Assembly (NCBI GenBank): GCA_025361735.1
Contig: JANYKD010000125.1
Coordinates: 136-64,135 of the forward strand
Source of the DNA: Phycisphaerales bacterium
Lineage (GTDB): Bacteria > Planctomycetota > Phycisphaerae > Tepidisphaerales > Tepidisphaeraceae
Direction of reading: 5' to 3'
Length of the DNA: 64,000 nucleotides
The position numbers and the translations under genes are program-made. Every line of letters starts with the position of its first letter. The stretch's first letter is position 1. The notes under the pieces are model-generated. The model saw nothing but the letters and a program-made list of their open reading frames with translations. It did no database searches and was not told the origin of the DNA. This document shows positions 2,615-40,538 of the stretch, piece by piece.

Positions 2615-2641
2615 TCACCTTCCCAAAAGAACCCATTCAGA

Positions 2642-2674: not shown

Positions 2675-2702
2675 GCGCGAACTCACTCAGGAGACAAGAC
2701 AG

Positions 2703-3752: not shown

Positions 3753-3814
3753 CGACCATTTCAGCGGGGCTGTGCGGCGTCGTCCCAGCTTCCCCTCACA
3801 CCTTCACCAAGGAC

Positions 3815-14575: not shown

Positions 14576-16300
14576 TTACGCGAGCACTGACTCCGCGAAC
14601 CGGTTCACCGTATCCGCCAGGAATTTCCGGCGGCGTTCGAGAAACACCCGGTAGTTCTCCAGCTTCCAGAGTTCCGGTTCAATCGGGATCCCCTGGATCG
14701 TCAACGCGCCCTCGCCACGCTGGGTGATGACACCGGGGAGGTAGTCCACCGGCTCCTTGTTGCTGATCCGGCGGTTGGTTCCGCCGGAGATGAACGCCAT
14801 GTTGGCGATCTCGTTGATCTCGCGCGTGTCGTATCGCTCTTTGAGCAGGGACTTGGGATAGATGTGGTGATACTGAATGTAGTGGTATCGCCCTGAATGC
14901 GTGAGCGACAGGCCCAGGCCCGTCTGCCAGTCCTTGGCACCGTTGGTCTTGAGGGAGAGGAACACCAGCGAGAAGAGCGGGCTGTACGCGCCCTTGCCCG
15001 TGAAATCGGCCGCGTCGAAGTCCAGCCGGCCAAATTGCTGGCGGACAGTCTCGATCAGCTTGTCGACGGTGCCGCCATCTCGGAGGGTCGCCAGGTCGGC
15101 ATCCAGCAGGGTTTCGGTCGAGCCGCGTGAATATCGGCCACGGGCGTTGGCAACGTACAGCCAGTACCGCAGCTTCTTTTCCTCATCGGCCGACAGCTGC
15201 TCATCCCGTTTCTGACTCAGATAGGCGATGGCAATGAAGAACAGCGGCGATGATAGCAGCGACTCGTCCTCAATTCCGATGTTGGTGCGAAGGAAGTTGA
15301 TGGCGAACCGCGGTCCGTTCTTGGCCTTTTCCCAGCCCGCCTTGAGCTTATCGATATGCGTGTTGCGGACGCGCTCAAACCGCGACTGATCCGTCGCGAA
15401 GACAACCATCGATCGCACCAGCAGCCCGAGGTCCAGCGTCATCCACTTCTCTTCGCATTCATCCTGGAAATCTTCCAGGAGCTTGAGCGAGTTCGGCCAC
15501 CGGGCGGTGATCTGTGCCAGTGCGAGATCCGAACCGCGGAGTTTCACGCCAAGCGAGTTCACGCGGACGAAGATCTCGGCCACTTCCTCATAGCTCAGGT
15601 CGCGCGGCAATACGTGCATCGTGTATGGATAGTCTGCGATCGCCCGCAGCTTTCGCAGTCTGCCCGCGTATAGCTCATAACGGGGATCGGCGAAAGAAGT
15701 GACGCCGGCGGCCTGGAGCAGTTCACTATCGCTGGTGGTCTTGAATACCTTGGTCACCGAAACCCAATTGGGCAATTGCGCCAACCGGTTGCTGGACACG
15801 ACGAAGGTAAGCCGGTTCAGCCGTTCCATCAGGGCATCCTCGCCATCCTCCTCATCCTCGTCGTCGGGAGGCTCATCGCCATTGTCGGTGGCGCCGGATG
15901 TGGGCTCCTCATCTGAATCCACCTCGGTGAAGTCCGACAGGCCCTCCGGGTGCTCCAGATTGAAGAGCACATCAATATCCCGTTTGCGGCCGCGGACCTT
16001 GATCGGCTGGCCTCGCAGGATCGCCGACAGGCTGGTCAGTCGCTGCTGGCCATCCAGCAAGAGCTTGTGCCCCTCGAACGGGCTGGTGCCCTGCTCAACC
16101 TGCAAGTCGCGCGTCGGCTGCTGCTGATCGGTCTCCCACACCAGTACCGACCCGCTCGGGTAGCCACGGTAGAGGGAGTCGAGCAGATCGCGAACGCGGG
16201 CCGCCCGCCAGACGTACCGCCGCTGCATCTCCGGCAGCCGCAGTTCGCCTCGTTCGACCATGCTCACGAGTTCTTTGACGTTGGTGGCGACTTTTCGCAT
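14576..16300 (-). CDS. GmrSD-type enzyme: N-terminal DUF262 (ParB-like) plus C-terminal DUF1524/His-Me nuclease
   Basis: 'LPEMQRRYVW...LLDSLYRGYPSGSVLVWE' and 'LLLDGQQRLTSL' mark DUF262. 'YHHIYPKSLL...EIANMAFISGGTNRRISNK' marks the DUF1524-like HNH. The ATG at 16300 follows the SD 'agagga'. An acidic insert (DSDEEP...DDEDEEDGED) separates the two domains. Confidence 0.8.
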   Translation of the reverse strand: MRKVATNVKELVSMVERGELRLPEMQRRYVWRAARVRDLLDSLYRGYPSGSVLVWETDQQQPTRDLQVEQGTSPFEGHKLLLDGQQRLTSLSAILRGQPIKVRGRKRDIDVLFNLEHPEGLSDFTEVDSDEEPTSGATDNGDEPPDDEDEEDGEDALMERLNRLTFVVSSNRLAQLPNWVSVTKVFKTTSDSELLQAAGVTSFADPRYELYAGRLRKLRAIADYPYTMHVLPRDLSYEEVAEIFVRVNSLGVKLRGSDLALAQITARWPNSLKLLEDFQDECEEKWMTLDLGLLVRSMVVFATDQSRFERVRNTHIDKLKAGWEKAKNGPRFAINFLRTNIGIEDESLLSSPLFFIAIAYLSQKRDEQLSADEEKKLRYWLYVANARGRYSRGSTETLLDADLATLRDGGTVDKLIETVRQQFGRLDFDAADFTGKGAYSPLFSLVFLSLKTNGAKDWQTGLGLSLTHSGRYHYIQYHHIYPKSLLKERYDTREINEIANMAFISGGTNRRISNKEPVDYLPGVITQRGEGALTIQGIPIEPELWKLENYRVFLERRRKFLADTVNRFAESVLA

Positions 16301-16365
16301 TGCTGATTCCTCTTCACTCCGTCGGACTATCACGACATACATGCAATGACCGCGTTGCCTTGGCT

Positions 16366-17265
16366 TCATGCCGGGTCTGGCGGCAGGAGTTGCCGCAGCA
16401 TTCCCTCAACGTGTTTGGCAGAATTGGGACGGTCGTTCGGGTCGTCCTGAAGGAGGGCAGTGCAAAGCTCCCAGAGCTTTCCGCCGGTGTGATCCTTCGC
16501 CTTACTTATGATGCCGGCGCTAATGGTATTAGTCGCCAAGAACCACAACACCTTGCCGAGCTGGAACAGATCTGATCGGTGATCCACGCGATGCTTCTTG
16601 TCTCGCGCGTACTGAATCAATTCAGGTGATGCGAAGAAGACAGGACCGACAAATTCCATTGTGGCCGTGAATTGATCCATCGGCCGCATCGACACATCTT
16701 CACCAATGTACTTCGCAATGCCCAAGTCGATCATCATGAGTTCATCTGTCTCAGCATCACGCCAGACGAAGTTCTGCGGCTTGATGTCGCGATGAATGAT
16801 GCCCTTTGCATGCAAATGGTCAAGTGCCTGGCAAGCTTGCGCACCAACTGCGACGAGGTTGTCCAAGGGCAGTGCGCCGTGAGCATCCACCTCTTCACGC
16901 AAATTCTTATCACCAAGGTCCATGGCCATCCATGGGACATCGATTGACTCGCCGCCGAGTTGGACGATACCAGAGCCATGACATGGGACGATAGATTGGT
17001 GGGTTATCGCCTTCAAAATGCGGATCTCGTTACTAAACCGGTCTTGTCGGGTCTCATCCAACTGTTTGAGAAGCTTCACTGCACAGTCCCCCATTGGCCG
17101 ATTGTACGGACCAAGTCGTTGGGCGCGAAAGACGACCCCGTTGCCACCCTGTCGGACTGGTGCCTGCAACTTGAACTTCGCCCCATCATCGGCCTGCAGT
17201 ATGAGTCCGTGGGCAAAATCAAGCTTCGTTTTGTTATTGCCGCGTTGAACGATGATATATGGCAT
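16366..17265 (-). CDS. Hanks-type Ser/Thr protein kinase, kinase domain only
   Basis: 'GGNGVVF' (Gly loop), 'CAVKLLK' (VAIK), 'HRDIKPQNF' (HRD), 'DLGIAK' (DFG-like) and 'FASPE' (APE). The start at 17265 lies 4 nt after the upstream stop. Confidence 0.85.
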   Translation of the reverse strand: MPYIIVQRGNNKTKLDFAHGLILQADDGAKFKLQAPVRQGGNGVVFRAQRLGPYNRPMGDCAVKLLKQLDETRQDRFSNEIRILKAITHQSIVPCHGSGIVQLGGESIDVPWMAMDLGDKNLREEVDAHGALPLDNLVAVGAQACQALDHLHAKGIIHRDIKPQNFVWRDAETDELMMIDLGIAKYIGEDVSMRPMDQFTATMEFVGPVFFASPELIQYARDKKHRVDHRSDLFQLGKVLWFLATNTISAGIISKAKDHTGGKLWELCTALLQDDPNDRPNSAKHVEGMLRQLLPPDPA

Positions 17266-17269
17266 ATAT

Positions 17270-17932
17270 TTAAGCTCCGCTTGTAAGATTCGCGTTAGCT
17301 GGTTCTTCATTCTCCAGGGACTCCAACACCGCTTTGAATGCCTCGTGAAACGGGCGAAACTCGACGGGGGCACCCGCCTCAGTCCACAACGCGTCTGCTT
17401 GAATCAGTCCAAGATCACTGATCGCAATCTGAACAAACGGATTACCCGGACGCAACCACGCCGTGCCAAGTGGGACGAAATGCCTCGGCTGGGCAGACCG
17501 CGGCGGCGGGGACGGCTCAGGCAGTTCCCGTACTTGGGCTCGCGAAAGGCGAAAGAGTTCCGCTTCCCAAGTTAGATCGCTCATGTAGGCCCTCATCTGG
17601 AACTGGCGCGCCCCCACTCGCCAGACCGCCGCACGCAAATGACGGGTTGCGATCACCAAGGGCTGCGGAGTCAGGCTTCCGTCGGGCACACTAATTGTCT
17701 CGGCAAGTTGAGTAAACTCTCCTTTGCGCCGGGCGAGTTGGCGGTGTCGGAGGGCTGCGGCGTAAACGATCAGTTCCTCAGTGTTGTGGACAGTGTCAGG
17801 CATGGCACCATGTTTGCTAAGAGGTGCGAAGTCTCGGAGCAAGTTCTGGGCATAATCGAAGTCGCCCGCCCAAAGCGCGAGTCGGGCGACAATGTATGCG
17901 TCCGTGGACGAAGGTGACCTTTCAGCAACCAT
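17270..17932 (-). CDS. Hypothetical protein (220 aa)
   Basis: The ATG at 17932 overlaps the upstream gene by 11 nt. No motif recognised. Confidence 0.5.
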   Translation of the reverse strand: MVAERSPSSTDAYIVARLALWAGDFDYAQNLLRDFAPLSKHGAMPDTVHNTEELIVYAAALRHRQLARRKGEFTQLAETISVPDGSLTPQPLVIATRHLRAAVWRVGARQFQMRAYMSDLTWEAELFRLSRAQVRELPEPSPPPRSAQPRHFVPLGTAWLRPGNPFVQIAISDLGLIQADALWTEAGAPVEFRPFHEAFKAVLESLENEEPANANLTSGA

Positions 17933-18689
17933 GGAGTGCCCCCATCAAAGCAGAGTTCGTTACGAAGCCGTCGACAAAACCACGGTAATTGTTGCCTGTA
18001 ACGCTGGCAACGATCTCTGTCTGGATTATCGGTTGATCTCGGGGAACGATGATGCTAACGAGCAGTCGACGCCTAATGCTGTATTGGAATGTGACGACCA
18101 AACCAAAGCCGACATCGGCGGGCTGCGCCTTCCCGATCGCGTACCAGTACGCTGCAAGTTGACGAAGAGCATCCGTCCGGCCTTGCGCCGCGGAAGTCAC
18201 CGTCTTTCTCGCCTTTGACTCAGTTGGCCACCACATGGGGTCATGGTTGACTGTGTGCGGCCACACGATATCAAAGACCTCGCGAACACGAGATCTCGCT
18301 CTCAGGACGTAGTCCGGGGCCTTCCGGCGTGAGAACGCCTTCACCGGGCGGATGTGGGCAATGTCGGCAATGTTCAACTCCAGAACACGTCGTGCCAGGC
18401 ACGCGGTCGCCGCCTCCCCGATGTTACCGGTGACGCCCGCTGCGGCAATCTTGCTGGTCATCATCTCGTAAGGGTGTGGAGCATGCGGATATCCGGCCAC
18501 GACAGGAAGGCTTAGAAGCCGTGGTGTCACGACATATTGATCGTAGTGCTCGCCCATACTGAGAATGTGGTAGACACCAAGCATCTCTGCTTCGTGGTTG
18601 ATTGATGCACAGTCCAGGTATATGCTCCCGAACTGGAGGGGGACACCGTTCACTCCCAATTGCACATCAAGGTCGATCCACATGTGCAT
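17922..18689 (-). CDS. Hypothetical protein with a PD-(D/E)xK-nuclease-like motif set
   Basis: 'GNIGEAATACLARR ... APDYVLRA ... WPTESKAR ... ALRQLAAYWY' follows the E / D / ExK / Q pattern of restriction-endonuclease-fold proteins. Confidence 0.45.
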   Translation of the reverse strand: MHMWIDLDVQLGVNGVPLQFGSIYLDCASINHEAEMLGVYHILSMGEHYDQYVVTPRLLSLPVVAGYPHAPHPYEMMTSKIAAAGVTGNIGEAATACLARRVLELNIADIAHIRPVKAFSRRKAPDYVLRARSRVREVFDIVWPHTVNHDPMWWPTESKARKTVTSAAQGRTDALRQLAAYWYAIGKAQPADVGFGLVVTFQYSIRRRLLVSIIVPRDQPIIQTEIVASVTGNNYRGFVDGFVTNSALMGALHGC

Positions 18690-18745
18690 GCTCCTACGTT
18701 CGGCATTTCACGTCTGGCTGGCTTTCATCCCGACTGCCAAGTCTC

Positions 18746-19462
18746 TTACTTCTTCGCCTTCAGTTTCGCCGCCATCGCCGCAGTTGTCTGGGGCCGCACG
18801 TACAGATCTTCAAACAGCAGCTCAAGCACATCGAGACAGTAATCCGCCTCCTCGGGCGTGACATCAATGATGGTGTTGGCCTGATCGACACTCGGGTGGG
18901 CGCCCCAGTTCCCAATCTTGCGAATGTGATCCAATGCCTCCTGGGTGTTCTTGGTCAACTCCGGTTTCTTGATTGCCTCAGCAATCTCTTCGTGGAGATT
19001 GTGTTTCGATATGCCCAGCTTCTCTCGTATCACATGCTGGAGACATCGCCGACACAGCACTGCGGCTGCCATGGGAGAGAACGGAAGTATTTGGCGAGCT
19101 TCATCGTAGGTCTTCTTGATGTGTGCTTCGAGACCGGTGGGGGCGAGATCCGGCCGAACATCAACTGGCCAAAGCAACTGACCAAACATCATTCCTTCCG
19201 GGAGTACCCGCAATCCGTTCCATCGCTTATCAAGGAATGTGAAGCCAACTGCCAAGCCGCGGCATGATGGACATCGTCCGATCATTGCTCCTTGGGGATG
19301 CGGTTCCGCACTGCTACTCTGGGGTGCATCGAGCAGATCGACGCTTCCGCAGTGCCGGAGAACCACAACTACCCCGCAATGGGGGCAGACCGCCGATACA
19401 TTATTGAAATGGCCTGCTCTTGCAAACGCAGTAGAGAGCGGTGGGGATGTTGGGTGTTTCAT
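18746..19462 (-). CDS. Zn-ribbon plus DUF4145 domain protein
   Basis: 'CPHCG...CPSCRG' forms the Zn ribbon. 'AAAVLCRRCLQHVIREKLG...LHEEIAEAI...ALDHIRKIGNWGAHP' matches the DUF4145 signature. The ATG at 19462 forms an ATGA overlap with the upstream stop. Confidence 0.6.
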   Translation of the reverse strand: MKHPTSPPLSTAFARAGHFNNVSAVCPHCGVVVVLRHCGSVDLLDAPQSSSAEPHPQGAMIGRCPSCRGLAVGFTFLDKRWNGLRVLPEGMMFGQLLWPVDVRPDLAPTGLEAHIKKTYDEARQILPFSPMAAAVLCRRCLQHVIREKLGISKHNLHEEIAEAIKKPELTKNTQEALDHIRKIGNWGAHPSVDQANTIIDVTPEEADYCLDVLELLFEDLYVRPQTTAAMAAKLKAKK

Positions 19463-20040
19463 GATTCCTGCTTGTGACATTCTTTCGGCGAACGGACGTG
19501 CGGCGGGCACGGGAATTCCGTTGTGGTGCCCGACCCAGGCAATACCCAGTCCAACTTCCTAAACGCTTCCTCGGTTACGAAGGCGAGGTCGTCGATGGAT
19601 TGCACGCCCAGCAGCGCGACCGTGGGTGTTCGGCTTTGCGGGTCCGAAGGATAGATCATAACGGTGGCCACGGCCGGCCAATGTTCCCAGTCGACCCAGA
19701 CCATCATGGCGCCGTGGTCGCGAACAGATCCGAGGTTGGCGTTCTTAGGTTTGCGGTCCTCCGGCAGGCCGTTGAGCCCTATTGGTTGCAGGTAGACAGC
19801 CGGGTCATGCAGGGCGGTGACGGCAGAATACAGGATTCGCAGAAATGAAGCCGCCTCTGCCTGGGCAAAAGCTACCGTTGCCGAAGGAGCCTGCTCACCC
19901 CAGAGGGCCGTCCATCCGTATCTAACCACCGTCTCTGCGCCGCGATGGGATGCAATAACCTCAACGTGCCAATTCCCCTCGCCGCGCAAATCAGGCAGGT
20001 CGATCGACCAGCGAAGATTTAGTTCGGGCTTGTCACTCAC
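19459..20040 (-). CDS. Hypothetical protein (193 aa), first gene of the cassette
   Basis: A GTG start is preceded by 'aagggg'. About 200 nt of non-coding sequence lies upstream. Confidence 0.45.
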   Translation of the reverse strand: MSDKPELNLRWSIDLPDLRGEGNWHVEVIASHRGAETVVRYGWTALWGEQAPSATVAFAQAEAASFLRILYSAVTALHDPAVYLQPIGLNGLPEDRKPKNANLGSVRDHGAMMVWVDWEHWPAVATVMIYPSDPQSRTPTVALLGVQSIDDLAFVTEEAFRKLDWVLPGSGTTTEFPCPPHVRSPKECHKQES

Positions 20041-20240
20041 AGGCGACCCCTTTGGCGAATAGATATGCTGCGGCCAGGTGGTGGGGCGGGGGCAGTCAGG
20101 GGCCAGTCGGGGAACGGGGCAAAGAGGATGGGAGCACCGTCCATCAAATCGCTCCGGATTGTTTTCTTGAGCGCCATCTCATGGATCCTCGCAGAACATC
20201 ACACAGGGACGATCGTGCCGCTGACGGCTTTGGCCTTGGC

Positions 20241-23200
20241 TCAAGGCACCTCACCGCTACGGAACCATTTCGTATCCGCGGCCACCTTGTCGGCCAGGTC
20301 CTTGCCTGACAGATACTTCGCCAGCTTTCGGAAATGGCGAACCATCGCCTGCTGGTCGTCCAGTTCGACGTAGGTGATTTCAATCACTTCATAGCCGTGG
20401 CTGCGCAGCCAGGACCGTATCTCCTGATCCCTGGCCGCAGTTGCCGGGTTGCCGTGCAGGGCCGCGCTCATACCGTCGAGGTAGATGCAGACCCCTTTGC
20501 CTTCCGGGTCATCTTCATCGCCAGAAAACCGAACGTCCGGGGTTGTGCTGCCAATCTGGTGGCCGAGGTCAATCTTCTCCTTGAAGCGGATCTGCTGCTG
20601 GAACTGTCCGCTGGTAAAGCCGGCCGCCTCCAGCAGGTGCTTGAGTTTTGTCTCGCCGTCGTTCACCGGCTGCGCGTTCAGGTCATGGTTATGCACAGTC
20701 GGCTGTTGTGCGGGAATCGGATGCAGTTCTGAGATCGCAGCACCGCACTCGTCCAAAATGGTCGCGGCCGCGTGCCGATCCAGATACTGGTGGTAGTAGC
20801 CATTTCTGAAGGTCTGCAAGCAGTCAATGCACGATCGCTCACACGCCGCCGGACAACCCTTCACCAGATCGCCGGCCGCCGCTGTCACCTCAGCAAACCG
20901 ACTGCGAAGCTGGTCCAGTAAACCCGACCCACCGGGCATCGGGTCCCACAGCACGGCATCTACTTCGTCGCGGTCAACGTGGCCGATCACCAGCACCTGC
21001 AAGTCCTCAAGGTGCATATCCAGCACCTGGGTCGCTCCCATCCGAAGGGCTTCCATCAGGCTATAGGCATCTTCACGGCTGGTGCAGCCCTGGAGCATGA
21101 TGCAGTCGGCCACAATATCCGCGAAGAACCCGAGGCGGTCGGGCTTGCGGCCGCAGCGTTCCTCGTGGTTCTCGCCGAAATTTGTCAGTTGCGCCAGCGA
21201 CGCCAATGGCGAAACGCTCTGGCCGCAGACGGAACAGATCGGATAGCCAAGTTCCTGGCTCTGCTCGATAACCGGCGTCGCGCCGACGTTCACCAGCCGC
21301 AGATGCACGCCGCGGCGGAGCAGCAGTTTCCGCGTGCCCCATTTCAGCGCCACGCCGCCGTTGTGCCGGCCCTTTTCTTTGCCGAAGATCGAAACGGGCA
21401 TCTGGAAGCGTGTTTCCTCTTCATCGGAAATCTGGGATTGATGCACCAGATCGACATCGCAGACGGATATCGTGCGGAGCGACAGCGAACCCACGGCCCC
21501 GGCCGCATTGCCAGCGCTCGTCTCTGAAACGGCTTGGCGATCAATGCTCACCTCAAACAGCGGTGTCTCGGCTCGGTCCTCTTCAGCTTCGCGATGAAAT
21601 CGCCGGGCCACAAACCGATGCCCGTTGGCGTAGATCAGGTTTCCAGGCACATACTCGCGCAACGCCAGACTGGTCGGCCGTGGCAACTCAAAATCCATGC
21701 TCCCGAGCTGCCAATACGGCACTTCCGCCATTCCCGTCACACTGCCAGTATCCAGCCCATAGCCGGGCAGGAACCCTTCCACGGCCAGAACGCCGTACGT
21801 GTTGATGTCATCCACGCCTTCCGCTTCCGTGCGCTTCTTGGTTTGCACACCCTTGAGCTTCTTGATGAGCCGGTCGCACCGCCGATAGTGCGCCTCATCC
21901 TCAGCCTCCAAGGTGCCGAACTTGGCGCGCACGGCGTTGAGCCGGGTGATTTCACTATGCGCCCACTGTAGGCGCTTCCGGAGCCGCTTGAGCACGGCAT
22001 CCAGTTCAGTTGCCATCCCATCGACGTGTCGCTCCAGGCTCGCCGTGGCCGTCGCCTCCTGATCGCCGGCCGGCCAGCCCGGCTGAAACACTTCCTGCAC
22101 ATACTTGATCAAGTCCAAGCGGTACTTGCCGACCAGTTGCACGAAGGGGCTCACGTCGAACGGGCCACTGCGAAGATGGCCCGAATCCTCGAACAGGTAA
22201 GACGATATCCGACGAGGGAGCATTTCCTTCAACACGCCGCTGATGGCCTCCGCCTCTACATCGGGCAAGCCCGAGCCTTTGCGGGCAAGCTGAAACAGCC
22301 GGGTGAAGATGGCTGCATGCACATGTTTGGCGACCATCAGGTCGTTGCGAAGATTGAAGGCTGGCGGGTCCACCTTGCCCTCCAGCATTTTCAACGGCTG
22401 GCCGTAGTAGGCCCGATCGTGCGACGCCGTCCGGCAATAGCACAGATCCACCGCCATGCGATGGCGCCGCCCAGCCCGGCCGGCACGCTGCCAGTAGTTT
22501 GCCGGCAGCGGCGGCACATTGCGCATCAGCACCGAATCCAGCGAGCCGATATCCACGCCCAGTTCGAGTGTTGGCGTGCAGACCAGCGTGTTGACCACCT
22601 CGGAAGCGCCCTTGAAGAAGTTCTCAATTCGCTCACGCTGCTCCTGCGGCACCATGGCCGTATGCTCTTCCGGCCGCAGCATCGAGTATCCCTGGTCCAG
22701 CAGTTGCAGGTCATAGTTGTCCAGGTCTTCCGCGATGAACTCCATTTCCCCATCGCACTGCCAGGCCATGCAGAGGTTGTGCGGCGCCCGCCGCGACACC
22801 TTCCGCCGGCAAGTCTTGCAGCGGTAATAGCCGTGGTTCTCGCTCAACCGCACGACGCCCGCGTCAATCTGATAGACCCCGCTGCACTTGGCCAGCGGCT
22901 TGTCCTTGCTGCTCTTGAGCGTCACCGGCACGAGGATTCCCGGAATATCGCTGCGGAGGTAATTCCAGAGAGCGTCGAGGAAACCAGGAATATCCGCATC
23001 GACAACGCCCCATTTCTTGGCGATCTGTCGCACGACCGTGCTCCGCTCGCCCAGCCAGGGCCGCACCAGGTTGCGATCATCGCCTGCATCCACCTTGAGC
23101 TTCATCCCTTGCGGCCCGCCCGGCATCACCGGCAGGTAGCCACGTTGTATTTCGCGGTCGCCATCGTTCCAGTACCGGGTGAATATCTCCCGGTGTGGAT

Positions 23201-25688
23201 CGTGCAACATCCGCTGGCGACGAAGCTGGTCCAGCAGCGTCTCGACGCCTCCCTTGAGGTCTTCCGGGGGCAATCGCAGCTTGTTGGCCCATTTCTGGAT
23301 GAACTCGGACGCCGCATCAAGGCCGGTGTACGTGGCGCGCATACGCCCCCAGGGCTCCAAGCCTCTCTGTTCGTTGGCCGGCGTGGCGATTTCTCGCAAC
23401 ACCTGGATGCGAAGGTAATGCCGCCGTTCATCGGCGTGGGTTCCACCCGAACCCTCCTTGGCCACCACCCGCCAGACTTCCGGGATCAGCGCCCGCGACA
23501 GCGAATCATCGGCATCCAGCATGTCGTCAATCTTCTTGACCATGTCGCCCACCGACACGGCCCCGCCCTTCATCGCGTCGGCCATCAGCCGGCGCAAACG
23601 GAAACGCCGGGCATGGTCTTTCATCCAACCGGCCTGGAATGCCGCATCCTGGCGGTTGTCCGCGAACAGCAACAGCCGCTTTCGCTCGGCATGATGCACC
23701 ATGTCCTGCGCCAGAACATGCACATCTGCCACGTTTACCGCCCGCACCGGACGCATCGGCTCGCGATACCGTCGGCCCATCGGCCGGCCCTTGGCCGTGC
23801 AGGACAGGCAACTGCTCAGGTAGCCGGCATGATCCTTGGATGAGCGCGCCGCATACAGCTTCACCGGCTTGTCCATGCTCCCGCATCCCGGGCACTTGGA
23901 GACTTCCTCGCGGAATGCCGAGCCGCAATGCCGGCAGAAATACATCCCCTCCAGCCGGTCATGGTGCTCCAGATCATCATCGTCATCGAGACAAATGACC
24001 CGATCCACCAGCACGGCGCGCTTGCCGCCGGTGGCCTTGGCCATCGCCTGCCACCAGACGTTGCCGTTGTCATCCAGTTGCCCGCCTTCGGGCTCCTTGC
24101 CGATGAACGTGAAATCCTTGAGCCAGGTCTCAAAGTAGTGCTGGCCGCAGGTCGTGCAGGTCAGAGCGGGCACGCGCCAGGTGCCTTTCTCGCCACACGT
24201 CGCAATCTCATCCTCGCTGCTAAGCCACAGCTTTAGCTCACTGCCCTCTGGGAACGTCACCACAGCGCCGGGAATTCCGCGAACAAACGCATGCACCACC
24301 GGCCGATAGATCGGCCGTCCATCCTTGAATGCTGCTGCCCCCAGCGCCAGGTAGGTGAGCAGTTCCTCTTCCGAAACCGGCCGTTTGACGGATGTCTCCA
24401 ATTCATTCACCAGCAGATCGAGTTGCCTCACGCCGGTCAGCGAAACCCGGATTTGCGCGGCCACTTCATTGCCGGTCAACGCCTCGTGCAACGCTGTCTT
24501 CCACTCTCCGGCTGGCAACTGCGCCCCAGTGAGCTTGGCGTATATGTCGCGAATCTCCGCTTCGGGGCTGGGCAGATCGACGGCAACCAGCGTCCGCTTC
24601 AGCAACTCCACCACAGGCTCGACCGGGGGCTTGGGATTGAGCCTTCCGAGCTTCCACACGTCTTTCTCGTACTCTTCATGCACGCACTCCACGCCGGCGG
24701 CCTCAATCCCGAAGAAGCGCGAAGCGAAGCTTCGGCCGGCATCCGGATCTTTGGCATCCACGATGGTCGCCGAGGTCGCCACGCAGGTCGTCTGCTGGCT
24801 TGTCTTCCCACAGAACCTGCGCAAACGCCGGATCAGGCAGGCCGTCTCTGCCCCGCTGATGCCGGTAAAGGTGTGCGCTTCGTCAAACACCAGATAATCC
24901 AGCCGGGCGTGGTTGAACAGCTCCACATCCACCTGTCGCGTCAACAGCAATTCAAGCTGTTTTACGTTGGTCAGGAGAATTCGCGGCTGACTTCCCGCCG
25001 TCCGCATTACCTCGCGCGAGCAGACCTCTTCCGCTGGATGCACCGCATCCGGCCGGCCCTGTTCGCGGTATTGCGACAGCACCGCCTCATAGTCCGCCCG
25101 GCTTGCCCCGGCTTGCAGGCGATGGCCGGCCACTTCACGCTCGTATTCCGGCGTCTTGCCGATGTACATGCCGAAGGAGACGCCGCTGCCGGCCAGCAGG
25201 CCGCGCAAACGGTCGAGCTGATCTTCAGCCAGGGCGTTCATCGGGTAGACGATCACGGCCGAAATCCCGGCCGGCTCGCCTGCATCCTTGAGTTTCAGAC
25301 ACTGGCTGATGATCGGATAGAGAAAACACTCGGTCTTGCCCGAGCCCGTGCCGGTGGAAACCAGGGTGGTCTTGCCTTGCAGGATGGAGCGTATGGCTTT
25401 CTCCTGGTGGCCATACAGATGGCTCACCCGGCCGCCGATGATGGCCGGCATGTGTGGATGCAGCAGACCTTCACTAACCATTCCGGCTATGGCCGCCCCT
25501 TGTTTGAAGCTACGCGAGAGGCTGATGTACGGCCCTTGCAGCAGCGGGGTATGGCGAACCAGGTCCAGGTTCAGAAGCTCGCGCATCTGCCGATGCAGAC
25601 GGGGGTCGGTGAACGGATAGGCCGTCAACTGATACCGCAGGAAACTGCGGACGACCTTCTCGGTGTACGTAATCGGGTTCAGGGCCAT
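20241..25688 (-). CDS. Giant DEAD/DEAH helicase fused to a DUF1998 (MrfA-type Zn module) and a C-terminal Vsr/DUF559-like endonuclease (DrmA+DrmB-like or DruE-like)
   Basis: Helicase motifs: 'VSTGTGSGKTECF', 'LVFDEAHTF', 'TPTLELGVDIG' and 'YWQRAGRAGRR'. Zn-ribbon inserts: 'CTTCGQ..CRHCGS..CPGCGS'. DUF1998: 'YPICSVCGQS...CPAACERSCIDCL'. Tail: 'TPDVRF...VCIYLDGMSAALHG...RDQEIRSWLRSHGYEVIEI'. The ATG at 25688 follows the SD 'agagg'. Confidence 0.8.
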   Translation of the reverse strand: MALNPITYTEKVVRSFLRYQLTAYPFTDPRLHRQMRELLNLDLVRHTPLLQGPYISLSRSFKQGAAIAGMVSEGLLHPHMPAIIGGRVSHLYGHQEKAIRSILQGKTTLVSTGTGSGKTECFLYPIISQCLKLKDAGEPAGISAVIVYPMNALAEDQLDRLRGLLAGSGVSFGMYIGKTPEYEREVAGHRLQAGASRADYEAVLSQYREQGRPDAVHPAEEVCSREVMRTAGSQPRILLTNVKQLELLLTRQVDVELFNHARLDYLVFDEAHTFTGISGAETACLIRRLRRFCGKTSQQTTCVATSATIVDAKDPDAGRSFASRFFGIEAAGVECVHEEYEKDVWKLGRLNPKPPVEPVVELLKRTLVAVDLPSPEAEIRDIYAKLTGAQLPAGEWKTALHEALTGNEVAAQIRVSLTGVRQLDLLVNELETSVKRPVSEEELLTYLALGAAAFKDGRPIYRPVVHAFVRGIPGAVVTFPEGSELKLWLSSEDEIATCGEKGTWRVPALTCTTCGQHYFETWLKDFTFIGKEPEGGQLDDNGNVWWQAMAKATGGKRAVLVDRVICLDDDDDLEHHDRLEGMYFCRHCGSAFREEVSKCPGCGSMDKPVKLYAARSSKDHAGYLSSCLSCTAKGRPMGRRYREPMRPVRAVNVADVHVLAQDMVHHAERKRLLLFADNRQDAAFQAGWMKDHARRFRLRRLMADAMKGGAVSVGDMVKKIDDMLDADDSLSRALIPEVWRVVAKEGSGGTHADERRHYLRIQVLREIATPANEQRGLEPWGRMRATYTGLDAASEFIQKWANKLRLPPEDLKGGVETLLDQLRRQRMLHDPHREIFTRYWNDGDREIQRGYLPVMPGGPQGMKLKVDAGDDRNLVRPWLGERSTVVRQIAKKWGVVDADIPGFLDALWNYLRSDIPGILVPVTLKSSKDKPLAKCSGVYQIDAGVVRLSENHGYYRCKTCRRKVSRRAPHNLCMAWQCDGEMEFIAEDLDNYDLQLLDQGYSMLRPEEHTAMVPQEQRERIENFFKGASEVVNTLVCTPTLELGVDIGSLDSVLMRNVPPLPANYWQRAGRAGRRHRMAVDLCYCRTASHDRAYYGQPLKMLEGKVDPPAFNLRNDLMVAKHVHAAIFTRLFQLARKGSGLPDVEAEAISGVLKEMLPRRISSYLFEDSGHLRSGPFDVSPFVQLVGKYRLDLIKYVQEVFQPGWPAGDQEATATASLERHVDGMATELDAVLKRLRKRLQWAHSEITRLNAVRAKFGTLEAEDEAHYRRCDRLIKKLKGVQTKKRTEAEGVDDINTYGVLAVEGFLPGYGLDTGSVTGMAEVPYWQLGSMDFELPRPTSLALREYVPGNLIYANGHRFVARRFHREAEEDRAETPLFEVSIDRQAVSETSAGNAAGAVGSLSLRTISVCDVDLVHQSQISDEEETRFQMPVSIFGKEKGRHNGGVALKWGTRKLLLRRGVHLRLVNVGATPVIEQSQELGYPICSVCGQSVSPLASLAQLTNFGENHEERCGRKPDRLGFFADIVADCIMLQGCTSREDAYSLMEALRMGATQVLDMHLEDLQVLVIGHVDRDEVDAVLWDPMPGGSGLLDQLRSRFAEVTAAAGDLVKGCPAACERSCIDCLQTFRNGYYHQYLDRHAAATILDECGAAISELHPIPAQQPTVHNHDLNAQPVNDGETKLKHLLEAAGFTSGQFQQQIRFKEKIDLGHQIGSTTPDVRFSGDEDDPEGKGVCIYLDGMSAALHGNPATAARDQEIRSWLRSHGYEVIEITYVELDDQQAMVRHFRKLAKYLSGKDLADKVAADTKWFRSGEVP

Positions 25689-25696
25689 GTTTGCCT

Positions 25697-25906
25697 CTAT
25701 ATTTTGCTCTCCGGATGAGCCGTTGCGCTCTGCCGCCATCCCGCCAGCACCAAGTCCGCGAGCACCTCATACGCGACGTAGCCCTTCCCATAACGAATCT
25801 GCGTCAGGAAGGAATACTGTTTTACCAATTCCGCGTACGCCGGCCGGAGTTCGTCGGGGAGGCGTTTCTCGGCAGTCTGAAACTTTGGGCTCTGATCGAA
25901 TCCCAT
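25697..25906 (-). CDS. Small hypothetical protein (69 aa) wedged between the methyltransferase and helicase genes
   Basis: The ATG lies 2 nt after the methyltransferase stop. Its own stop is 8 nt before the helicase ATG. Confidence 0.45.
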   Translation of the reverse strand: MGFDQSPKFQTAEKRLPDELRPAYAELVKQYSFLTQIRYGKGYVAYEVLADLVLAGWRQSATAHPESKI

Positions 25907-25908
25907 CA

Positions 25909-28900
25909 CTACCGCTCCTTTGGCTGCTGAAAAAGCGGGGCATCGTCCATATCAAAGAGCGTTCCGGTTCTGCTATCAGGCCCGCCAGCCGGGGCACCGG
26001 GAGTTGCCGGCGTGACCCGGCCTTCGATTTCATCCAGCAGCCGCTGAAAACTCGCTTCGCCCAGCAGGTTGCGGGCATGCAGGTGGCACTCGCGCCTGCT
26101 CTCGTCGGCCGACTGCGCCAACTGCCAGTCGTAGAACCGCTCGCCAAAGCACGATCGCACTGGCTGATGCTCTCTGGCCTGTTCGGCATTTCCCAAACCG
26201 TAGTCGGCCAGACGCAGCGTTTCGGGGAGCATCCACCCTTCGCCGTCGTTCAGGCCGCAGAAGGCTTCAATCCCCTTGGATACATCGCCGTTGTTGTTGA
26301 TGATCTCTTGCTGGAGGTCGCGGACGGCTATCACCGCAAGTGTCGTCAGCCGTTGTTCGAGCGGTCTGTCGTCGTCAACTCGCCAAAAGCCTTTTGTGTT
26401 GTTGCGATCCGGTCGCGTCAACCACGACACGTCCTCAACGCTCAGGCCCCAGACCACGGCCACAAGAGCGTCAAGAATCACCCGCTGACGCATGCGTTCT
26501 GCAGCAGTCAGCGCCCAATGCCGCCGGCTGAATCCGCCAATGCGCATCCATGATGGCGATCTGCTTACATGAACCAAGTTCAGCTTGGCAGCACACTCCG
26601 CCAGCCGACGCAATGCCGATGAACAAACGGACGGCGAAGGCAACGGCAATTCGGCAACGATGAACCAGTTCATTGTAAGTCCACACAGCCGCATCCGCGT
26701 CACGTAATCCTCAGTCAACGAATTCGCGAACGCCGTGACCTGCATTTGGTGAAGCCCAGACCGGGCTGTGCTGAGGATGGGGACTTTGTTTCCGCAGGGC
26801 AGGTTTCCGACCATGGATGCGATAAAGGTTCGAGTATTCGTGGCGGCTGTCACGTCCATAAACCCAGTGCCCTCTCGCAGCGGTTGCACTCCGAACGCCA
26901 TTGCCACCGCCTGCCCCATCGCAAACTGCGGCTCGGAAGTCTTGGATGCAAACGGGATTTCCCGCCACACCGCCGACCGTCCCTTGCCACTCACCCACCC
27001 CTTCTCTGACAAATCGAACTGGCCGATCATCCGGCCTTCGTACAGCGGCAATGCGACCGCTGGCCCGACGATCTTCCGCTCCGTTGCGTTTCTGCCTCGC
27101 CCCTCTTTGATCGTCAACGGCCTGCCGGCTGCGTCGGTGAATTCGACGACCGGAATATGCTTCTCCCGGATGAAGTGCGTGGCTTCGCGCGAGAGAATAA
27201 CGCCAGCGGGGATATCCGCTCGGGGGATGGGGAGCTTGTCATACGGCGGCTGGGCACAACGGCGCTGACCTTCGGGGAGCGGCTTGACGCGCAACTCGGC
27301 GTAGAGCTTCTCGATCGGCTGCCAGTCACCCTTAATCCAGCGGCTGTATTCATCCGCCTGATAACCCCACTCCTCCCATTTCGGTCGCGGCGGGAAGAGC
27401 TTGGAGTCATTCGTCATGTCAAACTCGCGCGTGTACCGGACCCCCCAGCCGTCGGGGCTATCATCACCGAGCAGCACTGAGTTGGCGTAAATCTTCGTCA
27501 ACACTTCCAAGTCGCGCTGCGACTGGATCTCCAGTAATGCGAGGCTCTTGGGAGAGAATCGAGTGATTCGGTCGGCGGGATAGAGCGTGAAATGTGGTTC
27601 GGCCTCTTCCCAGTCGGCGAGTTGCCGGCGCATGAAGGCGGTGCGGATGGCTTCCGTTTTTCCGTGCTTCTGAATGATGACCGGGTTGAACTTGAACGAC
27701 CGATGGATATCGAAAATGGCTTCGTGGTTCTCAAAACCAAAGAGCCATTCCCACCGGCATTTCTCGGTGAAGAGCTGGCGGAGGGGGCGCGAGCCGCTGT
27801 CTGAATAGAGACCGGACGGAACGATCAAGCCCAACCGGCCGCCATCGCCAAGAATCGCGTGGGCCTGCTCCAGGAACATCTTGTACAGGTTGATGTCGCC
27901 TGAACCCTGGTGGCGGAAGGCGTGGTCCTGGTCGGCGTAGCCCGACGATTCCTCGCGAGCAGCTTTCCATGTGTCGTGCCGATGCTGGGAACCGGCAAAG
28001 CTGTCGCGGCTGCGCGGTTCGGCCAGGTTCAGGTCGTGGGATTTCTTGCCGTCTTTGTCCACGGTCACGCGATCGCCGTAGGGGAAGCCAGCACTGCTGA
28101 CCCAGTTGGACATGGCTTTGTAGAACGCCTGATACTCAATCCAGCGGCGTTCTGTCTGCTCGTCATTGCCAAAATAATCCTTCTGGCGGTTGATGGCCTC
28201 CTGTTTGCCGTAGCCGCGATAGAGCGGATCAATGGCCGAGAAGAACTCCTTGCTGTTGGGCTTGGCGATTTCCCAGGGCGGGTTGCCGTTGACGGCATTG
28301 AAGCCTGTGGATGAATGCCCAAAGACATCCGGGAATTCCAGTTCCCAGTGGAAGAAACGGCGTTCTTTGGCGACCTCCCGGACGACGGCCCACGTTTCCG
28401 CGCTGAGATTGCCCTTGGCAAACTGGCTCGGGACTGGCGCGGCATGCAGGTCGGTGGCGGGCCAGAACCAGAGGGCACACCAGAGGTCAAACGCATCCTG
28501 GAGCCGGCGAAACTCGGCGCTGGAGCGGAGCGCTTCGTACCGCTGCTGGCGTTGGTTGACTTCGGTGATGCCCAGTGAGTGAATCTCGCGCAGGGCGTTC
28601 TCGGCGGTGTCATGTCCGGTGCGCACGGTGGTCAGATCCACCGGATAGAACAGCGTGGCGCCGTCGATGTAGCTGACAAGATCGGCCTTGACCTGCTTTG
28701 CGAACGCGGCGATTGCCTTGGTTTGCTGCCCTTCCTCAACATGCACGCCGTTGGAGTGTTTCTCATCGCCGCCAACGCGCTGCCAGGCCATAACCGGGTA
28801 GTGCAGGAATTGATCGAACCATGCCCCAACCAGCGCGTTGCCCCACTTGATCTTGTGGGATAGGAACGTCATGGGCAGACTGCGATCGAGCGTTTCGATC

Positions 28901-31113
28901 CAGAGCGACAGGCGGCAGAGTTCAACGGCCAGCGGATCGAGATCGACGCCGTAGATGCAGCGTTCGACGACGTAGCGGCGCAGGATGGCTTTGACGCGGA
29001 CTTCAAAATCATCATCATCCGGCCGGCAGGGAAGCAACTCGCTGGCAAGCGATTCGCGGCCCGAGGCATCGCGGATCAGTTCCATGATGTCCCGGCCGTT
29101 GTGCTGGCGGAAGCGGCCGTGGACCACCATCGACTGGTAGAGGGCATCGGTGAGGAAACGCAGCGAGGCCAGCGGAAAAGAACCGGAGCCGCAGGCGAGG
29201 TCGCAGACTTTGAGAGCCAGGATGGCTTCGGGCGGTTTGACTTTCCACTGCCCAGGCGGGGCATCAATGTTGGGTTTGCCATCGGCGCCGGCCGGCGGGT
29301 CATAGGCCAGCGGGCGGAGGGTCCGCTGGACGGTAGGCACAGCGAGTTGACGCACGGTGTAGAACGTGCCCGCGCCCTTTCGCGTGCCGCCCCAGCGGGC
29401 GAGATACCATTCGCCCGGCAATACGGTCTTGGTGATGAGCTTGCGAGCGGCAGCGGCGACATCGGCTTCGTACCGCATCCGCTTTTCGGGAGTCATGGCG
29501 CCACGCGGCCGGGAAACGAGCTTGCCGATTTCGCAGGCCCGGCGTGCCCAGGCTTCAGCGCGCCCCTGGAGGCTGAGGCGGGAATCGGCGACCAACTCAG
29601 CCGCACTGTCAGCGGCGGTTTCATCCTCAGCTTCGGTGTCGGCATCGTCGGCAGATTCCGGCTCGGCCGAGGTTTCTTCCTCAGGTTCTTCAGCTTCGTC
29701 GTCGTCCCCGGTCTTGCTGAACTTCTCCAGAAGATTCTTGATGGCCGGTTCGTCCATGGCCTCAAGCGAAGCCAGGGGCAGCGATGGCTGATTGCCCAGG
29801 GCAAGGAAGACGATGGGCTCGTCAGGGCGGGCGCAGTGCAATTCAAAGTCGAGCAGGCCCGCGTAAAGGATGCCGATGTATTCGTTGTCGAGGTTGGAGA
29901 AATCGACCGGTGCCGGCACCAGCGTGGTGGATCGGCCCTGGCGAATACGAATGCGGGTGCGGGTGAGCAGGTCGAGAATGCGGCGGACCTCAAGGTCGCT
30001 GGTGAGGCTCTGGCCGAAACAGGCGGTTTCAAAGATGGCCAGGGTCCGGCCCATGGGGTCATCACTGGCGGCATTGCCAGGAGCGAAGAGCTCGCCGCCA
30101 TACGCGGGGACCGGCATGGCCTCATGGCCGCAGCCGCTGTAGATGAGCTTGAACAATGCCAGGACGCGGGGCCAGGCGCTGTAGGCTTCGGCCAGCCGAT
30201 GTGGGCTGATTCGCTCCAGCAATTCGCGCAGCCCGTGGAGGCTGTAGCCGCTGTAATAGGTCGGATTGTCGCGCGGCAGCAGCCCATCGCGGCTTTCGGC
30301 GAAAAGGACTACGACCATGCGCATGATCATTCGCACGGCAGCGCGATAGATGTCGGCTGGCGGGAGGTTCTGGCCGACAAAGGCGGCGGCGTGGGCCTGG
30401 ATGAGATGTTCGGCGGCCTGACGGACCCGTTCGCCGAGCACCTGCGACAGATCGGATTGTCCCTTTCGACTGTCGCGAATGGAGAGCAACAGCGGGCAAG
30501 GCTGGTCAACCTGCTCGCCGGTCCAGAGTGACGGGGCAAGCAGGCCCCGGAACCCGGAAAACTCGGCCGAGAACTCGCCTTCGGCGAACCACTGCTGAAG
30601 ATCCCACTCGACAAAGGCATCGAAATCGGAACCGGCGAAGACAATACGCCACTGCTGGCCGTTGGTGAGCACGGCCAGCGCCTGGCCGGTGGCGCGGAGC
30701 CACTGGAGCACATGCGAGTAGACACGCTTGCCGCGGCCGAGTCCGAGTCGTTTCTGATCGTCGATGAAGACGGGCATCAGACCGCCCGTGCTGGCGATCC
30801 AGAGATGGTCAGGCCGGATGGTCTCGCCGCCGAAACCCCGGCGGGTCCAGGAGGCATCAATCTTCGAGCCGCGGTGCCAGTGCCCCAGCGGCGGCGAGAA
30901 TCCGCAGCTCTTTTCCAGAACGAACGCGACGAAAGCCGTGCGTTTGCCGCCAAGGTCGCCAGTGAAGCTGGTGATTTCACGGCGTAACTGCTCAGCCTGA
31001 TAGCCGGGCAACGGCACGGGAAGCTCGGGAAGGAGCTTGGCCAGACGCGGCAGGTCCAGCAACATACCGCCGTGAAGAAGGTTGGCCCACCAGTGGTACG
31101 CTTCGCTGCTCAT
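25909..31113 (-). CDS. Large (1734 aa) N6-adenine-type DNA methyltransferase (DrmMI / PglX / type IIG-like)
   Basis: Motif I 'KVCDLACGSGSFPLAS', 'YGVDLDPLAVELCRLSLW' and motif IV 'NAVNGNPPWE'. An ATGA overlap joins it to the upstream SNF2 gene. An acidic linker (DDDEAEEPEEE...) precedes the MTase core. Confidence 0.85.
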   Translation of the reverse strand: MSSEAYHWWANLLHGGMLLDLPRLAKLLPELPVPLPGYQAEQLRREITSFTGDLGGKRTAFVAFVLEKSCGFSPPLGHWHRGSKIDASWTRRGFGGETIRPDHLWIASTGGLMPVFIDDQKRLGLGRGKRVYSHVLQWLRATGQALAVLTNGQQWRIVFAGSDFDAFVEWDLQQWFAEGEFSAEFSGFRGLLAPSLWTGEQVDQPCPLLLSIRDSRKGQSDLSQVLGERVRQAAEHLIQAHAAAFVGQNLPPADIYRAAVRMIMRMVVVLFAESRDGLLPRDNPTYYSGYSLHGLRELLERISPHRLAEAYSAWPRVLALFKLIYSGCGHEAMPVPAYGGELFAPGNAASDDPMGRTLAIFETACFGQSLTSDLEVRRILDLLTRTRIRIRQGRSTTLVPAPVDFSNLDNEYIGILYAGLLDFELHCARPDEPIVFLALGNQPSLPLASLEAMDEPAIKNLLEKFSKTGDDDEAEEPEEETSAEPESADDADTEAEDETAADSAAELVADSRLSLQGRAEAWARRACEIGKLVSRPRGAMTPEKRMRYEADVAAAARKLITKTVLPGEWYLARWGGTRKGAGTFYTVRQLAVPTVQRTLRPLAYDPPAGADGKPNIDAPPGQWKVKPPEAILALKVCDLACGSGSFPLASLRFLTDALYQSMVVHGRFRQHNGRDIMELIRDASGRESLASELLPCRPDDDDFEVRVKAILRRYVVERCIYGVDLDPLAVELCRLSLWIETLDRSLPMTFLSHKIKWGNALVGAWFDQFLHYPVMAWQRVGGDEKHSNGVHVEEGQQTKAIAAFAKQVKADLVSYIDGATLFYPVDLTTVRTGHDTAENALREIHSLGITEVNQRQQRYEALRSSAEFRRLQDAFDLWCALWFWPATDLHAAPVPSQFAKGNLSAETWAVVREVAKERRFFHWELEFPDVFGHSSTGFNAVNGNPPWEIAKPNSKEFFSAIDPLYRGYGKQEAINRQKDYFGNDEQTERRWIEYQAFYKAMSNWVSSAGFPYGDRVTVDKDGKKSHDLNLAEPRSRDSFAGSQHRHDTWKAAREESSGYADQDHAFRHQGSGDINLYKMFLEQAHAILGDGGRLGLIVPSGLYSDSGSRPLRQLFTEKCRWEWLFGFENHEAIFDIHRSFKFNPVIIQKHGKTEAIRTAFMRRQLADWEEAEPHFTLYPADRITRFSPKSLALLEIQSQRDLEVLTKIYANSVLLGDDSPDGWGVRYTREFDMTNDSKLFPPRPKWEEWGYQADEYSRWIKGDWQPIEKLYAELRVKPLPEGQRRCAQPPYDKLPIPRADIPAGVILSREATHFIREKHIPVVEFTDAAGRPLTIKEGRGRNATERKIVGPAVALPLYEGRMIGQFDLSEKGWVSGKGRSAVWREIPFASKTSEPQFAMGQAVAMAFGVQPLREGTGFMDVTAATNTRTFIASMVGNLPCGNKVPILSTARSGLHQMQVTAFANSLTEDYVTRMRLCGLTMNWFIVAELPLPSPSVCSSALRRLAECAAKLNLVHVSRSPSWMRIGGFSRRHWALTAAERMRQRVILDALVAVVWGLSVEDVSWLTRPDRNNTKGFWRVDDDRPLEQRLTTLAVIAVRDLQQEIINNNGDVSKGIEAFCGLNDGEGWMLPETLRLADYGLGNAEQAREHQPVRSCFGERFYDWQLAQSADESRRECHLHARNLLGEASFQRLLDEIEGRVTPATPGAPAGGPDSRTGTLFDMDDAPLFQQPKER

Positions 31114-34412: not shown

Positions 34413-34782
34413 GAGTTCCCACTTTCGATCGCATCCCGTGAGCAATTGCGGTATTCCATCTGTATTGCGACCGCAGCGACCCACGACAGGACAATCACCC
34501 AAAGTGTACCGTGTGCGGTCTAAGACGCCAGACAACGACCGGCTGCGGAAACAGGCAGCGACAACTGCAAATTGGCTAGTCCCCGTCGTTGGATACGAAA
34601 CCAGCCTTGACTGCATTCCTTGCGGATCTGCGCTCAATACCAACTTGTGGACGTACTGGTTCGACTGGTACTCCGCCACAATCGCTGATCGTCTCCGCCC
34701 ATATCCTTGCACAGTGCTGCCACCACCGCCAGCCTGCGGCTCATGCCCTGCTTGCAGTGGCCCACCGATCTCCGGAAGCGAC

Positions 34783-40526: not shown

Positions 40527-40538
40527 TGAAAACTCCCC

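Follow-up and report, generated by a model that had tools for sequence, protein, structure and literature searches.

A defence-island gene cassette in a Phycisphaerales bacterium probably comprises separable modules, including an undescribed two-gene pair with a predicted nuclease

Auxiliary or backup nucleases of the PD-(D/E)xK and GmrSD types are embedded in BREX and BREX-related loci, a pattern described in a published account (PMC12839542). BREX-embedded GmrSD enzymes have been documented, as have Ronin, PrrC and PARIS, guards that are linked to restriction-modification (R-M) loci (bioRxiv 10.1101/2023.04.06.535777). ARMADA is defined by a YprA-like helicase (closest to Druantia DruE), a BrxHII/RapA-like SNF2 protein and a PglX-like methyltransferase encoded in one operon; its type II form is normally followed by a RelE-GajB fusion (bioRxiv 10.1101/2025.09.15.676423). 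How BREX, ARMADA and related methylation-based systems stop phage, and how they are backed up under phage inhibition, is still debated. Beside an ARMADA-like array of a Phycisphaerales bacterium lie six open reading frames, at positions 14576-20040 on the minus strand of the 64,000-nucleotide (nt) stretch of DNA that was analysed (the window). These genes, referred to as g1 to g6 (Table 1), had been proposed from the sequence, in what is called here the original prediction, to form one undescribed defence system in which a kinase regulates a nuclease.

The analysis indicated that the six genes are probably the downstream end of a defence island, composed of separable modules that were probably co-transcribed and that include one new pair, g3+g4, rather than a single six-gene machine. 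Something undescribed was present, as predicted; judged by sequence families and gene neighbourhoods, however, it is the two-gene g3+g4 module and not the six-gene cassette. Four modules would lie 3' of the ARMADA-like array. The first would be the orphan g1, translationally coupled to the PD-T7-4-like g2, and the second g3, as a RecB/Cas4-like PD-(D/E)xK nuclease, with g4, its partner of about 215 amino acids (aa). The third would be a bare Hanks kinase (g5), of a type known to act as a one-gene defence (PD-T4-6), and the fourth a GmrSD/BrxU-type enzyme (g6) that would restrict modified DNA.

Loci carrying g3 homologues were obtained by exact-protein look-ups, a scan of one genome per species and a metagenome scan. 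The fetched loci (L numbers) fell into 36 non-redundant clusters, comprising the window and 35 others, and all six window proteins were searched against them by tblastn and phmmer. In every locus with readable downstream sequence g3 was followed by g4. Neither the kinase nor g1 was present in any of the 35 other g3/g4 loci, and tblastn and phmmer found no g2 homologue in them; a GmrSD gene was present in one (L029) and a divergent DUF4145 gene in one (L025, 275 nt upstream of g3). The identified hosts of the pair were Planctomycetales, Gemmataceae, Blastocatellia, Eisenbacteria and the archaeon Methanoregula, with Planctomycetota and Acidobacteriota among the phyla, and the pair also occurred in metagenomes. 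This synteny showed that, among the six genes, only g3 and g4 form an evolutionarily conserved unit, inherited independently and translationally coupled. Since homologues of the kinase, g1, g2 and g6 were, apart from these two cases, not co-localised with g3+g4 elsewhere, the proposal of a conserved six-gene system failed on a point that the original prediction had itself named as decisive, for four of its six genes. Its suggestion that the kinase regulates the nuclease was likewise unsupported.

Wherever both the g4 start and the g3 stop could be read, the overlap of g3 and g4 was 3n+2 nt long (8-20 nt), and it was 11 nt in approximately two-thirds of the clusters, with a junction close to YATGNNTGYTGA that recurred across loci; the g4 start was ambiguous in one locus (L014). 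The two proteins also co-diverged, their pairwise identities being correlated over 210 pairs (r=0.90). The two genes were therefore recognised as a pair because they are adjacent, on the same strand, in overlapping frames and co-diverging.

The g3 protein had been described as PD-(D/E)xK-like (as a 255-aa product), and both alignment and modelling agreed with this description. An alignment of 78 sequences showed no variation at D126, K159 and Q177 and almost none at E92, P125 and E157; Y181 was nearly invariant in an 11-sequence alignment. Together these residues make up an E...PD...ExK...QxxxY signature of the RecB/Cas4 type. The AlphaFold2 (AF2) model, with a predicted local distance difference test (pLDDT) score of 77.5 and a predicted template modelling (pTM) score of 0.80, placed the conserved E...D...ExK residues on an αβββαβ core (helix-strand-strand-strand-helix-strand), in which helix 84-102 carries E92, strand 153-161 the ExK motif and helix 164-185 QxxxY, and D126 directly precedes the second strand (127-130). 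On the strength of this model and alignment, g3 is a probable PD-(D/E)xK nuclease, RecB/Cas4-like in type.

Searches of g3 against Pfam, PADLOC, NCBIfam and PHROGs gave no match, and the 78 family members matched no Pfam family, with scattered single chance matches only. Profile searches of the PDB with the g3 alignments returned nothing relevant, only a chance FecR-named match. The fold search that the original prediction had recommended recovered a canonical core for g3 but no significant fold match for either g3 or g4. For g3, Foldseek found nothing at E<=1e-3 in the PDB or BFVD (best E values 0.41 and 0.17, respectively); the best nuclease match in the PDB was RecE (E 0.46, not significant), and the weak matches in the two databases were dominated by RecE, Cas4/ACE1, RecB-family and other PD-(D/E)xK nucleases. 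A word-indexed search of 5.8e9 proteins gave 11 g3 homologues. An exhaustive hidden Markov model (HMM) search of 1.84e9 representatives gave 158 matches, of which 114 were at E<=1e-10 and at least one was spurious. The spurious match was P0101, a 3100-aa repetitive secreted surface protein that reached 3.5e-18 through 15 repeats, and it was rejected as a g3 relative. By these sequence searches, the g3 family is rare but real.

The g4 protein was characterised by two conserved motifs, A-x-W-A-G-D and R-x(3)-W, with no catalytic signature among them. Pfam, PADLOC, NCBIfam and PHROGs gave no match, and a PDB profile search found nothing. The AF2 model was weak (pLDDT 65); in the Foldseek search the weak matches were to type III secretion chaperones, VP24 and others. 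The possibility that g4 is a degenerate pseudokinase, following a PglW-like grammar, was ruled out by hhalign (probability 0.4%).

The survey showed that the pair recurs in or beside operons predicted to encode methyltransferase-based defence, of the type I, type III and type IIG R-M, BREX type 1 and ARMADA kinds. In nine clusters a DNA methyltransferase gene was the immediate neighbour of the pair. In L001, which has the same three-gene set as ARMADA, the pair directly followed the Eco57I-type methyltransferase gene, after a 2-nt gap, at the end of a YprA-SNF2-methyltransferase array (ARMADA type I order). It lay between BrxC and PglX of BREX type 1 in L004 and L015 and after Eco57I-type methyltransferases in L008 and L018. 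HsdM adjoined it in L019, L023/L024/L031 and L049, as did an N6_N4 methyltransferase with a ResIII partner in L046. An R-M-type locus was found within a few genes of the pair in six more clusters (L029, L013, L042, L020/L021, L006 and the window), with ResIII and an N6_N4 methyltransferase in L013 and a type I locus in L042.

Between HsdM and g3 in L049 (9104-9271) there was a 56-aa remnant sharing 89% identity with the C-terminal end of the N6_N4 methyltransferase of L046. This match suggests that the pair and the end of a methyltransferase gene were transferred jointly. The divergent DUF4145 protein near the pair in L025 was part of a region at 1856-4053. In the archaeon Methanoregula (L016, 3253-6902) HNH and GIY-YIG nucleases flanked the pair. 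A PARIS-like pair of AAA_15 and OLD-TOPRIM genes was located next to g3 in L034 (3640-6291), as a separate module.

These contexts resemble those of the BREX auxiliary effectors, in that g3 and the GmrSD g6 lie inside or beside methyltransferase-centred operons, with the pair between brxC and pglX in two loci. As far as the available part of that account extends (PMC12839542), the pair differs from these effectors in that g3 falls outside the Pfam and PADLOC nuclease families, is accompanied by a dedicated g4 wherever this could be checked, and occurs also with type I R-M, type III R-M and ARMADA. The guards PrrC (EcoprrI), Ronin (RonA with HsdMS) and PARIS (AriAB) are similarly small effector modules tied to HsdM/HsdS or BREX loci, and they offer a plausible logic, by analogy, for an extra nuclease beside a methyltransferase. 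In contrast to the likeness in context, g3 and g4 are unrelated to PrrC, RonA and AriA/AriB in sequence and in fold.

If g3 is a nuclease, it would cut DNA, and g4 would be its binding partner, with a regulatory, inhibitory or sensing role. The pair may then serve as an auxiliary or backup effector that adds a cleavage layer to the neighbouring methylation-based system; alternatively, it may act as a guard that is set off by a block of that system. Neither the kinase nor the GmrSD enzyme would depend on g3+g4. That anti-restriction proteins might be the trigger is pure speculation by analogy. A bolder form of the proposal holds that g3+g4 is an undescribed effector wired to the DNA-methyltransferase complexes of R-M, BREX and ARMADA, either a guard nuclease released by an anti-restriction block or a recruited DNA-cleaving component, with the kinase captured in this genome as an extra layer. 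This was regarded as unlikely.

Apart from the methyltransferase genes, the surroundings of the pair were diverse. Other informative loci carried defence genes (SIR2+HerA+DUF499, a PARIS-like pair, HNH with GIY-YIG, Fic, a MORC-like ATPase and PLD), and the genes abutting the pair included a kinase and SIR2/AbiH-like, REase-ARP, RhuM, RmuC and UvrD genes. Because the abutting genes otherwise vary, no fixed third component was recognised. A g3+g4 core with a swappable third gene, of which g3-g4-kinase would be a genuine three-gene variant, is quite unlikely. Candidates for such a gene do exist (the kinase in the window, SIR2/AbiH-like in L001, GIY-YIG in L016, HD-CE upstream in L042/L044 and REase-ARP in L004), and in some loci a third gene is tightly abutted, by 4 nt in the window, a 1-nt overlap in L001, 13 nt in L016, 15 nt in L037 and an HD-CE gene that overlaps the g3 start in L044. 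However, the candidates share neither a theme nor a fixed position, lying upstream in some cases and downstream in others; most are recognisable stand-alone defence or toxin domains; and many loci have core R-M or BREX genes as the closest neighbours of the pair, 40-270 nt away. The sole recurring arrangement was a four-gene form seen in four clusters.

This four-gene form belonged to one sub-family and consisted of a 139-aa protein, HD-CE (an HD phosphohydrolase-type protein of 260 aa), g3 and g4. It was located at 8782-11354 in L042 and 8791-11369 in L044, and was also present in L048 and L050. The HD-CE gene abutted or overlapped the g3 start.

The remaining genes of the cassette were, with one exception, assigned to catalogued families. 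By their profile matches, g2 and g6 fall into single-gene defence families (PADLOC PD-T7-4 and HEC-05/GmrSD, respectively), the kinase probably does so too (PD-T4-6), and g1 appears to be an orphan. The profile searches therefore placed only part of the set in named entries, and g1, g3 and g4 were unmatched. For g2, the predicted zinc ribbon and DUF4145 domain were both recovered: the DUF4145 domain matched Pfam at 5.8e-17 (62 bits against a 23.1-bit cut-off), and the zinc ribbon was read from the CPHCG and CPSCRG motifs, its Pfam zinc-finger score of 19.2 bits being below the 33.2-bit cut-off. The match of g2 to PADLOC PD-T7-4 (6.8e-19) was near full-length (profile positions 9-195 of 211), and g2 also matched PHROG 1305 at 2e-24.

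No family was found for g1 in Pfam, PADLOC, NCBIfam or PHROGs, and a PDB sequence search gave no match. Among 5.8e9 proteins it had a single non-self homologue, P0017 (51% identity), encoded on a 743-bp contig on which the next gene, readable for 39 residues, was unlike the g2 N-terminus.

The kinase was, as described originally, a bare Hanks-type enzyme; it matched Pfam Pkinase at 2.1e-25 and was catalytically complete by sequence. In PADLOC, which sets no cut-off, it matched PD-T4-6 at 8e-37 and mad6 at 6e-35, although the PD-T4-6 match spans the generic kinase domain only (profile 9-207 of 292). Its NCBIfam scores were far below the cut-offs for MAD6, the antiphage_MADS6 equivalog (66.7 against 460 bits), and for PglW (59.9 against 990 bits). 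A scan of viral contigs found no close relatives, and a plasmid tblastn search returned generic kinases of <=32% identity. From these similarities, the kinase most likely acts alone, like PD-T4-6. PglW of BREX type 2, in which a NERD restriction endonuclease (REase), a pseudokinase and a kinase are combined, is the nearest precedent for the six-gene idea, since it shares the REase-kinase combination and a methylation-based context. It differs in the low score of g5 against it, in that g4 is not a pseudokinase and in that the REase-kinase linkage is not conserved across the g3/g4 loci; the window array, moreover, lacks PglZ, BrxC and PglY, as no PglZ or PglY/BrxC model matched among the neighbouring genes.

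The GmrSD assignment of g6 also held. The GmrSD_N domain matched at 9e-28 (98.2 bits against a 33.2-bit cut-off), with DGQQR visible in the translation; GmrSD_C scored 21.2 bits, just under its 23-bit cut-off, and an HH...N motif was read by eye. PADLOC HEC-05 was matched at 2.6e-45 over residues 200-590. By analogy with BrxU within BREX, the enzyme most likely acts alone against modified DNA. The only other locus with both the pair and a GmrSD-like gene was a type I R-M locus (L029, 601-8582), in the order HsdM, HsdS, AAA_13 ATPase, an 85-aa open reading frame, g3, g4 and the GmrSD-like gene, whose product was 29% identical to g6.

All six open reading frames were found at the coordinates given originally, and the predicted coupling signatures were present in the sequence, the 4-, 56- and 65-nt gaps being dependent on the choice of start codon. 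The g1 and g2 genes shared an ATGA overlap at 19459-19462, closely preceded by AGGAA. From g2 the gap was 56 nt to the ATG at 18689 and 62 nt to the ATG at 18683; the latter was the preferred g3 start because it agreed with the N-termini of the homologues and with the AGGAG spacing. The g3/g4 overlap of 11 nt was at 17922-17932. A 4-nt gap separated g4 from the kinase if the latter starts at ATG 17265, whereas starts at 17310 or GTG 17373 would overlap g4. Between the kinase and GmrSD the gap was 65 nt given ATG 16300, which has a good AGGA, and a start at 16369 would produce an ATGA overlap with the kinase stop. Packing was tight under every choice of kinase and GmrSD start. A gene caller, run on the identical public Logan contig, placed the kinase start at 17310, overlapping g4, and gave lengths of 238 aa for g2 and 253 aa for g3. 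The approximately 200 nt upstream of the cassette (20041-20240), originally described as non-coding, contained no long open reading frame, but the same gene caller placed a 46-codon frame within this supposed leader (Table 1).

The AT-richer stretch reported by eye was real. GC content was 0.54-0.60 in g1-g5, and GC content at third codon positions (GC3) was 0.59-0.67, compared to GC3 values of 0.79 in GmrSD, which in this respect was like the upstream array and unlike g1-g5, 0.72-0.76 in the upstream array (YprA 0.76) and 0.73-0.75 in the flanking sugar-hydrolase-type genes. The step in GC3 was such that 16366-20040 (g1-g5) was lower than both 14576-16300 (GmrSD) and 20241-25739 (YprA). Because the GC3 of g1-g5 is lower than that of the GmrSD and ARMADA genes, the composition suggests a later arrival of g1-g5, in the space between the ARMADA helicase gene and a GmrSD gene that was already present. 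The low-GC block had no bounding repeats, matches to promoter and terminator consensus sequences within the cassette were at chance level, and no Rfam family was matched in the region.

Several points weigh against the division into separable modules. The six genes share one strand, neighbouring genes overlap or are <=65 nt apart, no internal terminator was detected, and local co-transcription of all six is likely; the similar low GC3 of g1-g5 is compatible with arrival as one block. The probable autonomy of the kinase is deduced from HMM similarity and from the lack of a kinase in the other g3/g4 loci. Adjacency to methyltransferase genes could result from common integration hot spots rather than from common function, and the nuclease assignment of g3 is without a statistically significant sequence or fold match.

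Some of the same features favour a rival account, in which all six genes, or the low-GC g1-g5, form one kinase-regulated nuclease system in this lineage, with the kinase sensing infection and switching on g3, GmrSD or both. Besides the single strand, the ATGA, 11-nt and 4-nt junctions, the lack of detected terminators and the shared GC3, a REase and a kinase are known in one protein in PglW and in some DndF proteins, according to PMC12839542. This account is nevertheless very unlikely, given the absence of the kinase and g1 from all 35 other non-redundant g3/g4 loci, with GmrSD and a divergent DUF4145 gene each present once; g1 is essentially an orphan, each of g2, g5 and g6 has its match among the single-gene defence entries, the composition of GmrSD is unlike that of g1-g5, and g4 is not a pseudokinase.

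It is also highly improbable that g3+g4 is a toxin-antitoxin (TA)-like addiction module, which would stabilise defence islands or travel with mobile R-M cassettes without contributing directly to phage defence. Such a module would fit the small size and translational coupling of the two genes, the combination of a predicted nuclease with a partner that lacks catalytic motifs, the patchy and rare distribution over distant phyla and an archaeon, and the small chaperone-like alpha/beta proteins among the weak, non-significant g4 fold matches. However, the antitoxin gene precedes the toxin gene in typical type II TA pairs, whereas the putative toxin gene comes first in g3+g4, and the position of the pair within BREX (brxC/pglX) or right behind methyltransferase genes (gaps 2-6 nt) argues for operon integration. 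A TA role would not preclude a role in abortive infection.

Table 1. Features of the cassette and of the adjoining array in the window.
Feature	Coordinates	Strand	Basis
46-codon open reading frame (uncertain), in the supposed non-coding leader	20037..20177	-	Gene caller, identical Logan contig; stop overlaps the g1 GTG start as GTGA
g1, 193-aa orphan protein, GTG start	19459..20040	-	Open reading frame call; without a family in four libraries
g2, 238-aa zinc-ribbon and DUF4145 protein, PD-T7-4-like	18746..19462	-	ATGA overlap with g1 stop; Pfam, PADLOC and PHROG matches; gene caller picks the same ATG
g3, 253-aa predicted RecB/Cas4-like PD-(D/E)xK nuclease, first gene of the pair	17922..18683	-	Motif alignment and AF2 model
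g4, 220-aa partner of g3, second gene of the pair	17270..17932	-	11-nt overlap with g3; adjacency across loci
g5, 299-aa bare Hanks-type Ser/Thr kinase, PD-T4-6-like	16366..17265 (alternative starts 17310, 17373)	-	Pfam, PADLOC
g6, GmrSD-type (DUF262 and DUF1524/His-Me) type IV restriction enzyme	14576..16300 (alternative start 16369)	-	Pfam, PADLOC
ARMADA-like array	20241..34799	-	PADLOC, Pfam, published ARMADA definition
YprA-type DEAD+MZB helicase, fused, 1832 aa	20241-25739	-	PADLOC DruE 1e-102 vs DrmA 1e-15; Pfam DEAD+MZB
PglX-like Eco57I methyltransferase, 1734 aa	25909-31113	-	PADLOC DrmMI 9e-114, type IIG; Pfam Eco57I
SNF2/BrxHII-like helicase	31110-34799	-	PADLOC DrmD 8.7e-193, BrxHII 8e-73; Pfam SNF2

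The genes upstream of the cassette, which are ARMADA-like and Azaca-like, were consistent with the predicted defence-island context, which was confirmed at the level of gene content. The adjoining array had been called DISARM-like; it was indeed a methylation-based defence array, but it was ARMADA-like rather than classical DISARM. All three genes of the ARMADA definition were present (bioRxiv 10.1101/2025.09.15.676423), in a type II-like gene order but without the usual RelE-GajB gene, and g1-g6 are outside that published definition. In the YprA protein no C-terminal Vsr nuclease domain was matched in Pfam at E<=1e-3, and the last 183 residues had no PDB sequence match. DISARM class 1 was rejected for this array, as a single fused protein contains both the helicase and the MZB/DUF1998 parts and scored far better against DruE than against DrmA. 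That class has separate DrmA and DrmB and the DrmC PLD nuclease, whereas the sole PLD gene of the window (38334-40526) groups with ZacB/ZacC-like genes. An Azaca-like system was observed directly upstream of the array, at 34783-41957 on the minus strand, comprising ZacC (SNF2, also PDC-M27C), ZacB (PLD) and a weak ZacA.

These results carry a caution, namely that tight packing and stop/start overlaps in a defence island do not make one system. Cross-genome synteny divided the cassette into four or more units, and three of them had been catalogued before. The g3+g4 pair, which is rare, widely scattered and found beside methyltransferase genes in bacteria as well as in one archaeon, offers a clonable candidate for an accessory or guard module.

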